Shown: piece by piece, positions 38,801 through 63,577 of the stretch | Layout of the letters: each line of letters begins with the position of its first letter | How positions within the stretch are numbered: the first letter of the stretch is position 1 | Assembly: GCA_951406725.2 (NCBI GenBank) | Contig: OX597830.1 | Span: 44,578,001 to 44,642,000, forward strand | Source of the DNA: Octopus vulgaris | Lineage: Eukaryota | Reading direction: 5' to 3' | DNA length: 64,000 nucleotides | The notes under the pieces: generated by a model | Seen by the model: the letters and a program-made list of their open reading frames with translations, nothing else | What the model was told of the DNA's origin: nothing | Databases searched by the model: none | Program-made: the position numbers and the translations under genes

Positions 38801-41800
38801 TTCGAGCTACATGATGACCTTTCTAGTGTCCCGCCATACTAAAATGAAGACTACTACATTGGCCATAATAATACAAAAAAATAGAAGGCTTCTCTAAATA
38901 TATGGAATATAGTTTCTGGAACTACCAGTAAGAGATAAAGTAGACAACTCTACTTATTGGAAAAATAGTTGCTGGCTCTACCAGAATGAAGAATAATAGT
39001 TTGGCCCTCCAGTATAAAAGATTGCACCAATGTGAGAAAATATATAAAAATATTCATAAAAAGGATATACAGTATTCTTTTTATACATATCCATTGACGA
39101 AAATTTCAACAAACCATTCATCACAATTCAGGCAAATAGAACAAAAGAAAAGTATTTTAAAATTTAAAAAGACTTACTTTACTTTTGTTGGTAAAACCTT
39201 CTACGGTAGGTTTGTTTGAGAATCTGCAAATTGAATAAATGAGAAAATTCCAGATTAGTAAAGTGAATTTGTCATGATGAGTCTAGAATCGAATGATTCA
39301 CTCTTTATCTTTTAACTGAGAATGGGGAATATAAGTGATATGGAAGGATTCTGACCACCTCAAGTGGCTAAAAGCGCCTTGACACATTTCTTTAAAATCA
39401 ACAACTGTCGAGTTGACAGCAGCAATTGACTGTGAGCAGTTTATAGAGGGGAATTAGCCTCATGCAGCAGTAACAGTAGTGTGTCGCGTAAATACTTTCT
39501 CCCCTCTACCCAAATTCGTTAAATTGTTTTATCCAGCACCAGGATTTAAAAGTGGTGACGAGATATTCGAAGCTTGGGTTAAAATGTTTCGGTATGGAAC
39601 CAGAGAAAAAAAAATCGTTAACATGGAGGACTTATTGACCTGGGTGGTGTAGTTGCACCAGCAACAACAGCTGCAATAGCGATTACAACAACAACAACAA
39701 AACCAGCATTTGTTGGAGTTAATATGGAAGCAGTCTGAAAATACTTCAGGTTTATACTCGCCAGACAGTGTAGCAAACGCCATTGGAGAGTACAGTTATA
39801 ATCAAGAAAAAAGGAACTACGTTCTCTGCATGTTTTTGAAGATACGTAGAAAGTTTCAAAGAAGAATGTAAAAGTTGTTCTGACGAGAAAAAAGTACGAC
39901 TACTTTTAAGAAAGTTATTGCCTGCCAAACATGAAAATTATAGTAACTATATTATGCCCAAGAAACCAAGTGAGATTTGTTTCGATGAAACAATTATTTA
40001 TCGAAACTTATCAGTGAAACAAGTTCCCTGTTCAATACTCGCTGGAATTGTTAACAGATTGTGAAAAATTCAAATTAAAGGAATTAACTTTGGACATGTT
40101 CAAATGTCTAATTTTTGTTCAAAGACTAACTGCAAGCAAAGATGCAGATATACGTTCCCAGATATTAACGAAAGTAGAACAGGACCAAAAATTAATTCTC
40201 CAGGTAGTGGCAGAAGCAGGCCAAAGGGTTATGAATTTAAGATATAACACAGGTAAAATTGAAGAAAAAGATTGCTCTCATAATCATGCGTGTCGACCTG
40301 TAACGAGTAGTAAAAAAGAAAAATATGTGAAGACTGAATCCATGTTATGAGTGGGGTGGTCTGCATTTTAAAAATAACTGTCCGTTTAAAAAAAAAACAT
40401 TTTAAGAGTAGTAAAAATGGGCATAAAAAGCTCACACTATAGAGAGTAACAGAAAAAAAAAAGCTCGAAAGAAAAAAATTCTGGGAAATCTGTATTGTCA
40501 ATAGTAATCAAATAAGAAAATTTGTATTCATAAAAATGAATGATGTTGATACCAAACTACAATCAGATATGGAAAGTGATATCTCTATAATTAACGCAGA
40601 TACATGGAAAGAAAATCGGGGGACTAAGTTTAAAAGAAAGTCGAAAATTGCACCATGATGTTTCAGGAAAAAAATTACATTTTAAGGGCGAAATGTTAAG
40701 TGAGATTACATTTCGTGAAAAAACTTTAAAAGCCAAAGTTTTTGTGTTGAATAATACGGCAAATTTATTCCGAACAGACTGGATGGAATTATTTAACTTA
40801 TGGGATATCTCCATAAATTGTTTCTGTAAAAATATGAATTGCTTTTCTGCCAGTACAAATAAGGCGTCGGACGGATGAAAAATAAAATTTAAAAGATTTT
40901 TCCTGAAGTTTTTTTCTGATGAATTAGATTTGTGCACCAAAAACAAACGCGAAGTTTCAACTACAAGGAAATGCTATAACGGTATCTAAACCAAAACGAA
41001 CTCCGCCTTTCGCAGCGTTGAAACAAATAAATGAAGAATTTGATAGACGTAAAAAGCTTGGGGTTACGGAAAAAATTGTTTATGCTGAATGGGCATCACC
41101 AACAGTTTACGTCAAGGAAAAGCAATAAAATCCAGGTATGTGCTGATTTTTCTAACAAGTTTAAACGAGTGTTTGATGACACATAATTACCCACTATCAA
41201 GTCCGGAAAAAATATTCGCCAAGTTAAATGGCGGAATTTTTTTCAAAGTTGAACGTATCTGAAGCACACCTACAGGTACAACTTGAGGAGGAATGTTAAA
41301 AATTATTAAAAATAAATGCACAGAGAGGAGTATATAAATTTAACAGACTTCATTTTGGTGTAAAGGCAGCACCAGGTATTTTCCAACGAGTCATGGACAC
41401 TATGCTCGCAGTTGCGGATTTCGCAATAGCCTACATGGATGACATACTCATTAAAAGCGAATCCCAGAACCAGCATGTAGGGCAAGTGAAATATGTGTTC
41501 GAAAGAATAAAGGATTACAGCTTCACTTTGAGTGAGGAGAAGTGTGAATTCTTACCGAAAATAAAATCTCTAGAGCAAATCATCGACAAAAATGGACGTC
41601 GGTTAGATGTGTTGAGGGCAGATGCAGTTAAAAATATGCGCCATCCATTAAACATATCGATCTTACAAGCTTTTTTGGAAGTTGAAAATTATTATCAAAA
41701 TTATATACCAAATATGCACAAGGTAAGAATTCCACTAAACAATCTACTAAAATAAGATATAAATTGGAATTGATCTGAAATGGTCAGGTGTTCGATGAAA

Positions 41801-62440: not shown

Positions 62441-63577
62441 CTAGAAAATAATACAAACAATATTATTTGCAAATCAAAATGACGGAGTGAGATTTTTTAG
62501 CGGTTAAAACCAAGATTTAAGTAATATGAAGAAGGAGGTATATAAGTAACAATAGTATGCAGAAAAACAAAAAATAACTACATCTAATAATCTACACACA
62601 CATATAAACACAGAAAAATACATTTATTTAAAAAGTCATTTGTGCTTTCAGTTTAGTTTTTGTGATCTGAACATATTTATTATTGTTTCCCAATAGAAAT
62701 TTGCATTCTCATCTACAATTATTGTATTTTTATATGGTTCAGTATTTGCGATGCGATGTTTGTGTAAATGTTTTGTATTCAGAGGCTGGATCACCACAAT
62801 GCAGTATCTGCTTCGTAATCAACTTAAATAGCCCCTCTCGTAATATTTCAGCATCGAACGTTCGATCTGCCGAGGATACCCTCTCTTCACCCTCTTATAA
62901 GTTTTGGTGTTGGAGGCTTTACTGTATAGACAGGAGATTTTGTGGGGTCCTTCGCTGGAACTAGGTCACAGGAAAACCATATCTACATACAAGGACGCCA
63001 CCACTGTCATGTTGGATACTTCGGATTTGTGGTATCATGGTATCATTCTTGTAGGGACTTTTTGTTGAGCTGTATCTAGGTATAGGTGATCACTCGTCAG
63101 ACTTAAATTACTGAAGGCGCATCAGTTATTTGTGTCAGAAGAGTCACCTATACTGCTAAGCACTTTATCGGAGAGATATCAATGCTCACTCTATGACCGG
63201 CCTATAACTTTTGACCTTCTAAAAGATACAGTACCGCTTTAATGCTTTAGAATGTGCTTTTTGATTAAACAATTTCCACCTAAAGTGCTGTTCCCATTTC
63301 CTTAAATTACATTATGATCAGCTTCTTCCACTAAACCGTTAGTTTTCTTTAAAAAATTGTGTTCTCCTGGTTTATAAAAAAGTTTTCACAATAAGAATAG
63401 CTAACCACAAGTGTTCTTCTTTTGAAAATTTTTATATCTGTGACTAGCAGGAAAGCTTAAGGTAATTATTCTTGTAAAAGCTTCGGTATCTCGGAACAAT
63501 CTGACCCATAATGTAATTGTAAAAATCTGTGTAACTCTCCTTTAGATGGGAATTGTTTTATTAAAAGCATGAACGTA

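Follow-up and report, generated by a model that had tools for sequence, protein, structure and literature searches.

In the accessible part of PMC13143021 TRPM channels are described with a Cys-rich N-terminus and one MHR1/2 region, and in the accessible parts of two preprints the cephalopods have few TRP expansions (bioRxiv 10.1101/2021.11.14.466824; 10.1101/2024.05.23.594666), with octopus ranked among the least expanded for TRPM (bioRxiv 10.1101/2024.05.23.594666). The second of these reports that bivalves and vent gastropods have expanded TRPM in recent local paralogue clusters, as here, and its accessible part has no tandem SLOG repeats, micro-exons or test of selection. The stretch of Octopus vulgaris DNA analyzed here (64,000 nucleotides, contig OX597830.1, positions 44,578,001 to 44,642,000; hereafter the window) contains the front end of a TRPM-type gene from a multi-copy family with tandem SLOG domains, which are of a nucleotide-sensing type. 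The family has a modular tail of micro-exons and dN/dS above 1, lacks a Cys-rich stretch and fits neither published picture. In the open-access literature searched, which excludes subscription journals and bioRxiv supplements, neither the array, nor the repeated SLOG domains, nor the signal of selection was found described, and an octopus TRPM-type sensor family of this make-up is likely to be undescribed and a real variant of TRPM. The exons themselves are already present in automated public gene models, and the family was probably overlooked as the SLOG part and the channel part of the gene are separated in these models.

The closest described systems are the TRPM-beta and TRPM2-like channels (PMC13143021; PMC13402157; human TRPM2, PMC6759353), which have the SLOG domain (PF18139) in common with the octopus family and whose channel portion is represented at this locus by downstream exons matching model P0009. 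They have one SLOG domain, whereas the octopus family has three to five in tandem, lacks the Cys-rich N-terminal stretch, has in P0008 and P0009 no NUDT9-H, the C-terminal domain of invertebrate TRPM-beta, draws its N-terminus from a micro-exon array and is present in at least seven copies. The canonical proteins nearest to the family in a SLOG tree are octopus P0020 and P0021, which have exactly the lengths of beta-TRPM entries in the PMC13402157 supplement. These two carry a Cys stretch at the place where the 212 array-coded residues of P0005 contain no Cys. The best solved relatives of P0008, a near-identical isoform of P0009, are human and sea-anemone TRPM2 (E 1e-143), and no NUDT9-H family was found on it; the last matched exon of the locus ends in the way P0009 ends.

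The gene lies on the reverse strand and its front end is built from twelve micro-exons, the last four of which are in the window and the other eight upstream of it (G000:C17:44645773 to 44678983), reaching 37 kb past the window. The original prediction of duplicated micro-exon pairs was correct as to the pairs, of which there are six and not two. The ninth exon of the array is A (62397..62440, A1 type, 44 nt), identical to P0005 residues 211-225, followed by B (55868..55916, B1 type, 49 nt), which also matches P0005, A' (45980..46038, A2 type, 59 nt), a member of the fastest-changing family, and B' (39178..39223, B2 type, 46 nt). Most of the twelve micro-exons are already included in P0005, which is identical to the window exons. 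The array is followed by the 41-nt exon E5 (35369..35409, phase 0 to 2), which has a WIEENIKLR motif and opens SLOG repeat 1, and by E6 (30487..30571, 85 nt, phase 2 to 0), with a PCDAFG motif and without the canonical TRPM Cys-rich stretch. Repeat 1 continues through E7 (27831..28011), E8 (22805..22968), E9 (18452..18626), E10 (approximately 12786..12899), E11 (7165..7236) and E12 (approximately 5662..5844) to its end in E13 (approximately 2256..2351), all on the same strand, and the gene continues past the window start.

P0005 contains three PF18139 (SLOG, MHR1/2) stretches (491 bits against a cut-off of 25.7), and the gene has at least three tandem SLOG domains and probably five. Past a 100-N gap (G000:C17:44495808) the same strand carries downstream channel exons (C17:44495130-44448625, 77-100% identical to P0009) that may share a transcript with the SLOG repeats, and one of them contains a one-base insertion absent from four sister copies. 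No match to MHR3 or MHR4 was found at the locus, where this gap occupies exactly their expected place, and both are present in the relative P0008. The copies, at least seven of them on the one contig C17, vary in how many pairs and how many SLOG repeats they have, and a small separate contig, C60, carries part of the family. Judged from sequence alone, the putative ADP-ribose contacts differ between octopus repeats when compared with human TRPM2: in repeat 1 Y295 is replaced by F, R302 is kept and R358 is replaced by P (in E11), while repeat 2 of the sister models keeps R302 and R358 and has a gap at Y295.

All four window micro-exons are bordered by AG and GT and contain no stop codons, and the predicted phases are borne out, with A and A' passing from 0 to 2 and B and B' from 2 to 0. 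The lengths of the single micro-exons are 2 or 1 modulo 3, and symmetry exists only at the level of the pair, each of which begins and ends in phase 0 with length changes of whole codons. A-B-A'-B', A-B and A-B' all preserve the frame into position 35409, whereas B-B' and A-A' lose it. The exon at that position, originally called exon 5, does follow the array in frame and is the 13th from the first exon found. Selection on the frame is supported by a set of 144 exon copies of A, B and C types, with 17 exon lengths, chosen blind to frame and with one spurious hit removed; 143 of them have the expected phase class and no stops, and the lone exception is a wrongly picked acceptor.

Tandem exon duplication also generates variable sequence in the Dscam-type exon clusters (cf. 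PMC3364881), which are mutually exclusive, whereas neighbouring octopus exons are included together. This is seen in transcript-like contigs from four runs of two studies, out of seven small-share runs, whose RNA nature is a guess, as none of the 24 listed runs is recorded as RNA. They join B to A', A' to B' and B' to the next exon at GT-AG borders, giving the predicted junctions 55868>46038, 45980>39223 and 39178>35409, and they carry the window's own B' letters. B' is joined to both A' and 35409 in all four runs and B, through its last 27-30 letters, to A' in three of the four; in one contig, of 258 letters, A' is preceded by 144, of which 30 were listed. No skipping of micro-exons in the window gene was seen at the spliced ends of A' or among the joints listed into 35409 in the contigs of these runs.

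The suggestion of a combinatorial N-terminus is not borne out by the contigs, in which the spliced ends of A' all join the next neighbour (3/3 upstream and 4/4 downstream). In a stronger form, pairs would be skipped in vivo as in the schistosome MEG genes, and the many resulting N-termini would be the main purpose of the array. Skipping any whole number of pairs keeps the frame, and in P0011, a predicted isoform of an Octopus sinensis paralogue, a B-type exon is joined straight to the WIEENIK exon, omitting four micro-exons that are included in the predicted isoform P0009. Against this, all seven spliced A' ends have the adjacent partner, B' is the sole source into 35409 among the joints listed (in contigs that drop rare forms), and pair number already varies among copies in the DNA, which provides length diversity without splicing. 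The octopus array resembles the schistosome MEG genes and VAL-6 (PMC4350168) in its runs of very short exons, species-specific expansion and high dN/dS. However, MEG exons are individually symmetric whereas here the symmetric unit is the pair, and MEG products are secreted proteins with documented alternative splicing whereas the octopus product is the predicted cytoplasmic tail of a channel-type protein. We regard a cassette of this kind as the strongest of the alternatives and still improbable.

The repeated blocks with a period of about 16.5 kb that were originally noted are present, although direct alignment spans just ∼0.5 kb for B and ∼0.4 kb for A. By self-blastn the B' block (38830-39334) is a direct copy of the B block (55517-56026), with 72% identity across 523 aligned columns (E 1.5e-74) at an offset of 16687, and the A' block (45506..46368) aligns with the A block (62118..62747) in two pieces, 46135-46368 with 62527-62747 (72%, E 1.7e-29, offset 16392) and 45506-45669 with 62118-62305 (67%, E 1.7e-10, offset 16612); the array carries on upstream of the window. 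In splice-site-anchored alignments the B and B' exons agree at 24/43 positions (56%) and the A and A' exons at 23/44 (52%), levels reached as well by 102 and 240 of 300 shuffles, respectively. The flanks of B and B' agree at 132/179 and 154/187 (exon versus flank, Fisher P 0.002) and those of A and A' at 133/177 upstream and 103/159 downstream (P 0.024), against a baseline of about 65% reached by shuffled flanks on gap-free columns; the first 200 nt of the A downstream flank are no better than shuffles (11/60). The claim that the flanks match better than the exons is upheld, with three of the four flanks at 74-82%, and formal alignment places the exons below the flanks in both pairs. Upstream of A' lie copies far more similar to it (92-93% over 471 nt), so A-B and A'-B' represent an old duplication beneath younger ones.

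Rates were compared among recent copies, those with flank scores of at least 400 bits (A0 10, A1 5, A2 15, B1 13, B2 3, C 11, E5 7 and E6 7) together with the seven best copies of E7-E9; sites lying 170 bases or less from the end of a locus and one site without an exon were dropped. Flanks were cut at insertion breakpoints in the main test, which favours a reading of acceleration; in a comparison with unmasked flanks, distorted by insertions, C has a ratio of 0.92 and E7 one of 0.34. The 57 micro-exon copies have 101 variant alleles in 318 columns compared with 260 in 2802 flank columns, and comprise 90 nonsynonymous and 7 synonymous variants where 22.4 and 7.6 are expected at the intron rate. 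By codon position the variants number 43, 46 and 12 on 106 sites each. The excess of amino acid changes is gene-wide and not special to the micro-exons, with 71 nonsynonymous and 10 synonymous variants in the first SLOG domain (a 3.2-fold excess). Introns are better conserved than the exons, as proposed, only in a relative sense, the rate at silent sites being close to that of the introns; on these comparisons the exons evolve at an accelerated rate, next to introns that seem neutral. Specially conserved intron elements are superfluous given this silent rate, and an inverted block beside B and B' (68-75%) has diverged like the flanks.

In a codon model omega is 19.6 for the A'-type exons (P 1.5e-5; 15 copies, 16 codons) and 2.2 for SLOG1 (P 0.007; 7 copies, 213 codons). 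The excess is not significant for A0 (P 0.32), and the signals for C (P 0.036) and A1 (P 0.039) are lost after correction for six tests. The 49-nt B family has no excess, with 8 nonsynonymous variants against 6.0 expected (ratio 1.1, codon P 0.40). Fast and probably adaptive divergence, as originally supposed, is supported for the A-type and the 70-nt C-type exons and not for this family, and dN/dS above 1 together with a neutral silent rate is found in the A'-type exons and SLOG1 and in neither the B family nor the channel exons. Between A' and its sister at C17:68259240 there are 2 flank differences in 152 positions, 12 nonsynonymous changes and 1 synonymous change. Between species, O. sinensis P0003 differs from A' at 2 of 19 residues and from E5-E13 at 1 of 386, and O. 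bimaculoides P0013 is identical at 54 of 87 micro-exon residues and at 292 of 370 residues of E5-E13. The copies share history and may also recombine, both of which qualify these tests.

We conclude, with a probability of about 0.7, that the array codes for an acidic, Ser/Thr-rich and likely disordered tail of a multi-SLOG TRPM-type gene, and that its amino acid-changing differences among copies run at about four times the intron rate, most likely under positive selection. The array part of P0005 is 26% Ser/Thr; the disorder is predicted from composition only because the predicted fold, from an eight-sequence alignment with mean pLDDT 32, is uninformative. Unequal crossing-over would have added and removed pairs, a process tolerated because they are phase-symmetric, and the introns would drift neutrally while the encoded cytoplasmic surface is pushed to diversify. 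A similar pattern is known in snake venom PLA2 and other toxin families (PMC7285919), in which introns are more alike than exons in recent paralogues and KA equals or exceeds KS; those are secreted toxins, whereas the octopus genes form a multi-domain intracellular and membrane protein family with third codon positions that are not raised.

It is unlikely, though less so than the explanations that follow, that the array is a near-neutral, frame-keeping spacer under relaxed constraint, with flanks that seem conserved through gene conversion or splicing constraint. The channel exons exceed their flanks 2.1-fold, and do so at silent sites (8 versus 5.1) as well as nonsynonymous ones (30 versus 14.2; N/S P 0.29), so these flanks may have undergone some homogenisation or be under some constraint; silent divergence of E8 and E9 from the window copy is likewise 0.04-0.06 where the flanks are at 0.02, and the rate in the 49-nt B family is that of the flanks. 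Some copies are broken and relaxed selection therefore contributes. However, neutrality or escape from conversion would raise all three codon positions equally, and the third is at the flank rate (12/106 versus 260/2802) with the first and second about fourfold higher; moreover, the codon model gives omega above 1 without use of the flanks.

There is only a slight chance that mis-assembled haplotypes are counted as copies and sequencing errors as differences. The 100-N gap divides the locus, part of the family is on C60, and distant copies have some blocks with 100% identity, including 600 flank bases at C17:44575670 and 68915670, so that some copies may be uncollapsed haplotypes. Errors would neither spare third codon positions nor preserve the frame over 17 exon lengths, and the window's B' letters recur in the contigs. 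Other species agree: the exon order is the same in O. bimaculoides P0013, and paralogue-specific peptides are found again in O. sinensis models. RNA editing is heavy in octopods, and exon-limited mutation through A-to-I edited RNA that is reverse-transcribed and written back into the copies would suit the SLOG1 exons (17 A>G variants, 9.6 expected), but the mutation spectrum rules it out for the micro-exons (7 A>G against 11.5 expected, and a transversion excess with transitions 42/101), every copy examined retains its introns intact, and we consider it highly improbable.

If positive selection is responsible, pathogen conflict over an ADP-ribose-type nucleotide sensor ranks first among the candidate agents, though at less than even odds, followed by sensory tuning as a weaker candidate, reproduction slightly behind it, and other causes last. 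More speculatively, and with doubt, this may be a still-expanding giant TRPM-derived family with up to five SLOG domains and two micro-exon acidic linkers, reshuffled by recombination, perhaps with in-frame skipping of pairs or domains, whose members are engaged in an arms race as variable intracellular receptors of nucleotide signals, probably immune.

The flanking introns suggest where the pairs came from. An origin of the A-type exon from the 41-nt exon E5 was rejected, as A profiles hit none of 30 E5 flanks and none of 37 flanks were hit in the reverse comparison, and the E6 upstream intron is preferred. Because the introns upstream of A and downstream of B and C match the two introns that flank E6, the pair appears to descend from a copy of the SLOG-opening exon. 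The array would then allow the growth of a new disordered region, by repeated copying of a single ancestral exon, to be dated. The E6 upstream-intron profile matches 25 of 37 A flanks, and that of the intron just after E6 (30353..30428, reverse strand), homologous to the introns following the B- and C-type micro-exons, matches 34 of 34 B flanks and 10 of 12 C flanks, in both cases with no hits among reversed decoys.

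Comparison of the window with itself bears out the two duplicated blocks of the original prediction, with direct matches at an offset of 16.4-16.7 kb (E values 1.5e-74, 1.7e-29 and 1.7e-10). The four minus-strand micro-exons in them, A (62440-62397, 44 nt), B (55916-55868, 49 nt), A' (46038-45980, 59 nt) and B' (39223-39178, 46 nt), sit at the predicted coordinates and have the lengths, phases and splice sites assigned to them, and the routes A-B', A-B and A-B-A'-B' into the next exon (E5, 35369-35409) all keep the frame. When aligned from their splice sites, B and B' are identical at 24/43 positions and A and A' at 23/44, no better than shuffled sequence. 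The 200-base flanks of these old pairs do rise above shuffles in three cases out of four (74%, 82% and 75%), the exception being the A/A' downstream flank at 65%. The exons are thus less alike than their introns, as had been proposed, and the opposite pattern, in which exons match at least as well as introns, was not found.

Contigs from four runs of two studies, which we guess to be RNA, were used to follow splicing, and the predicted junctions that they cover are used. The joints from 39178 to 35409 and from 35369 to 30571 have GT-AG ends and are present in all four runs. At A' the contigs break off at the exon ends, with downstream letters that are those of the window's own B' in all four runs (45980 to 39223), and in three of the four the letters before it come from the end of B, matching B over its upstream twin (55868 to 46038), although the same letters also occur in other B-type copies elsewhere; the fourth run enters the intron. 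If the runs are RNA, the window exons are real and expressed. No alternative splice partner is seen among the contig joints listed for the four runs, in which rare forms are lost and which leave 328 loose ends besides, and the sole sign of skipping, and so of the proposed combinatorial N-terminus, is the predicted O. sinensis isoform X4 (P0011), without four micro-exons found in isoform X1. One contig of run X1 is spliced downstream of A' and extends 44 letters into the upstream intron (46038-46082), which would reflect either incompletely spliced RNA or an alternative start.

A query with one exon returned eight Octopus proteins, including P0005, an automated O. vulgaris model that is identical to the window exons, already has all four micro-exons in the predicted order, and contains three SLOG-in-TRPM stretches without a channel domain. 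Mapping exons over 224 kb around the window shows an array of twelve micro-exons, eleven of them present in P0005, that extends upstream of the window: a 53-nt A-type exon carrying the start codon of sister models P0001 and P0007, a 49-nt B exon and three pairs that each consist of a 59-nt A-type and a 70-nt C-type exon, followed within the window by A, B, A' and B'. The encoded tail is 26% Ser/Thr and 19% Asp/Glu, with no Cys. Downstream of the window exons, SLOG repeats 2 and 3 are followed by a gap of 100 N in the assembly (G000:C17:44495808-44495907, in the octopus genome) and then by channel exons that match P0009 at 77-100% identity. Two SLOG repeats and a channel are combined in model P0015. 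We infer that the window gene is a single transcript from array through channel. Contig C60 carries the start of a SLOG repeat 4 and might belong to the piece missing at the gap. One channel exon of this locus (G000:C17:44472922-44472676) carries one inserted base not present in four sister copies, reflecting either a broken copy or a sequence error.

At a sister locus (C17, 79.69 to 79.27 Mb) separate searches give the order array, SLOG repeats, second array of short acidic exons, last SLOG repeat and channel, which is likely the full gene order. This second array (G000:C17:79402615-79380058; loci L075, L084, L096, L113, L124 and L126) alternates B-type exons (52, 40 and 28 nt) with 32-nt E5-type exons and encodes an acidic linker ahead of the last SLOG repeat, with similar sequence in P0003, P0004 and P0018.

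Genome searches located about 40 places of B type and 37 of A type, almost all of which lie on a single contig, and the first SLOG exons in at least seven close copies; all of these counts are lower bounds. Exon choice relied solely on splice signals and on homology of the flanks, and 143 of the 144 exons were stop-free and in the expected phase class, with lengths of 26-59 nt (A), 28-97 nt (B) and 46-103 nt (C). Pair number varies among gene copies, and one copy has A0 and B exons as an inverted duplicate pair (G000:C17:69124702-69146130; loci L010, L059 and L060). A close copy of E11 (7165-7236), in repeat 1, is kept in only three of seven copies, in accord with models such as P0006 whose repeat 1 runs into repeat 2. 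E7 (27831-28011) is 181 nt long and one codon shorter (178 nt) in six sister copies; E8 (22805-22968) and E9 (18452-18626) have frame-shifting losses in some.

Exon order is the same in O. bimaculoides P0013, and the A-B/A'-B' duplication is therefore older than the split from that species. In a tree of 33 SLOG domains, which left out five rows of P0013-query matches and six redundant isoforms, repeats in the same position cluster together across species, and only Octopus proteins make up the multi-repeat group. The first 330 residues of P0013 matched 24 proteins, 15 from Octopus and the others at no more than 44% identity and 65% query coverage, in a search limited by word matching and length.

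The introns beside the pair resemble those beside E6 (30487-30571), an exon that occupies the place of the Cys-rich stretch in canonical octopus TRPM. A profile of the intron after E6 matches 34/34 B and 10/12 C downstream flanks, and one of the intron before it matches 25/37 A upstream flanks, the A acceptor lying about 50 bases further down; reversed decoys gave no matches. In several copies SLOG repeat 4 is preceded by an A exon of 26 nt and a B exon of 28 nt. The simplest reading is that a copy of an E6-type exon was split by a new intron and then multiplied, although two partial copies would fit as well.

Among copies whose flanks are at least about 90% identical, which are not independent and some of which are broken or may be haplotypes, the micro-exons contain 101 variant alleles in 318 columns versus 260 in 2802 flank columns. 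Ninety change an amino acid and seven are silent, where the rate and spectrum of the flanks would predict 22.4 and 7.6, and the variants fall 43/46/12 by codon position. The nonsynonymous excess is 8.2-fold in A'-type exons, 5.9-fold in A type, 3.8-fold in C and 2.4-fold in A0, but is not significant in B' (2.2-fold, three copies) or B (1.3-fold). A codon model without flanks gives an omega of 19.6 for A' type (P 1.5e-5) and 2.2 for E5-E9 (P 0.007), is marginal for C and A1, and is not significant for A0 and B. Against a selection reading, the main test cuts flanks at insertion breakpoints, and C and E7 show no excess when the flanks are left uncut.

As controls, the SLOG1 exons have 71 nonsynonymous and 10 synonymous changes (22.3 and 7.5 expected) and three channel exons in five copies have 30 and 8 (14.2 and 5.1 expected), the latter without a significant N/S excess; E11 has no substitutions in three copies. 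The predicted fast, possibly adaptive exon divergence thus stands for A', A and C but not for B, and the signal, though strong, is gene-wide and includes SLOG1. E5-E9 (18452-35409) in seven copies have a mild excess of sense-strand A>G changes (17 versus 9.6 expected), which is absent from the micro-exons.

Phase-symmetric pairs would allow the tail to gain or lose length by unequal crossing-over without frameshift, and the introns, which change about as fast as silent sites, keep a record of how old each duplication is. Selection has most likely pushed the tail and the first SLOG domain towards diversity. When gene copies arise and are lost while dN/dS exceeds 1 on cytoplasmic surfaces, the most typical cause is conflict between host and pathogen, which we would, as a guess, rank first among possible drivers. 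Residues Y295, R302 and R358 of human TRPM2, which bind ADP-ribose according to PMC6759353, are F, R and P in repeat 1 and vary between repeats, suggesting altered ligand handling; O. bimaculoides repeat 1 retains the last Arg.

The window gene may function as a TRPM2-type channel does, with additional sensing domains, but as far as its exons were matched it has neither the Cys-rich N-terminus of TRPM nor the NUDT9-H of invertebrate TRPM-beta. Two further TRPM features, MHR3/MHR4 and a channel on the same transcript, may be hidden by the 100-N gap. Its family evolves similarly to the schistosome micro-exon genes and venom gene families described in PMC4350168 and PMC7285919, without being one of them. 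The accessible portions of PMC13143021, PMC13402157, bioRxiv 10.1101/2024.05.23.594666 and 10.1101/2021.11.14.466824, PMC12919962 and PMC3364881 neither name P0001, P0003, P0005 or P0013 nor describe tandem SLOG repeats. The supplement of PMC13143021 enters as TRPM-beta an O. bimaculoides protein with an accession number adjacent to that of P0013. This is possibly the channel half of the P0013 locus.

An inverted match in three pieces (38020-38788 versus 53902-54686, 68-75%) adjoins the direct B/B' block, and represents either a section of the duplicated unit that inverted later or a single repeat inserted twice. At 53482-53866 there is a tandem duplicate of 183 bases (97%); O. sinensis model P0003 opens with similar sequence where the upstream micro-exons would be, which is probably an error of prediction. 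On the plus strand, frames in the array introns at 56391-57500 and 36205-37550 resemble fragments of DNA-transposon transposases, and a GC-rich stretch at 7639-11130 has long frames resembling a non-LTR retroelement's endonuclease and reverse transcriptase.
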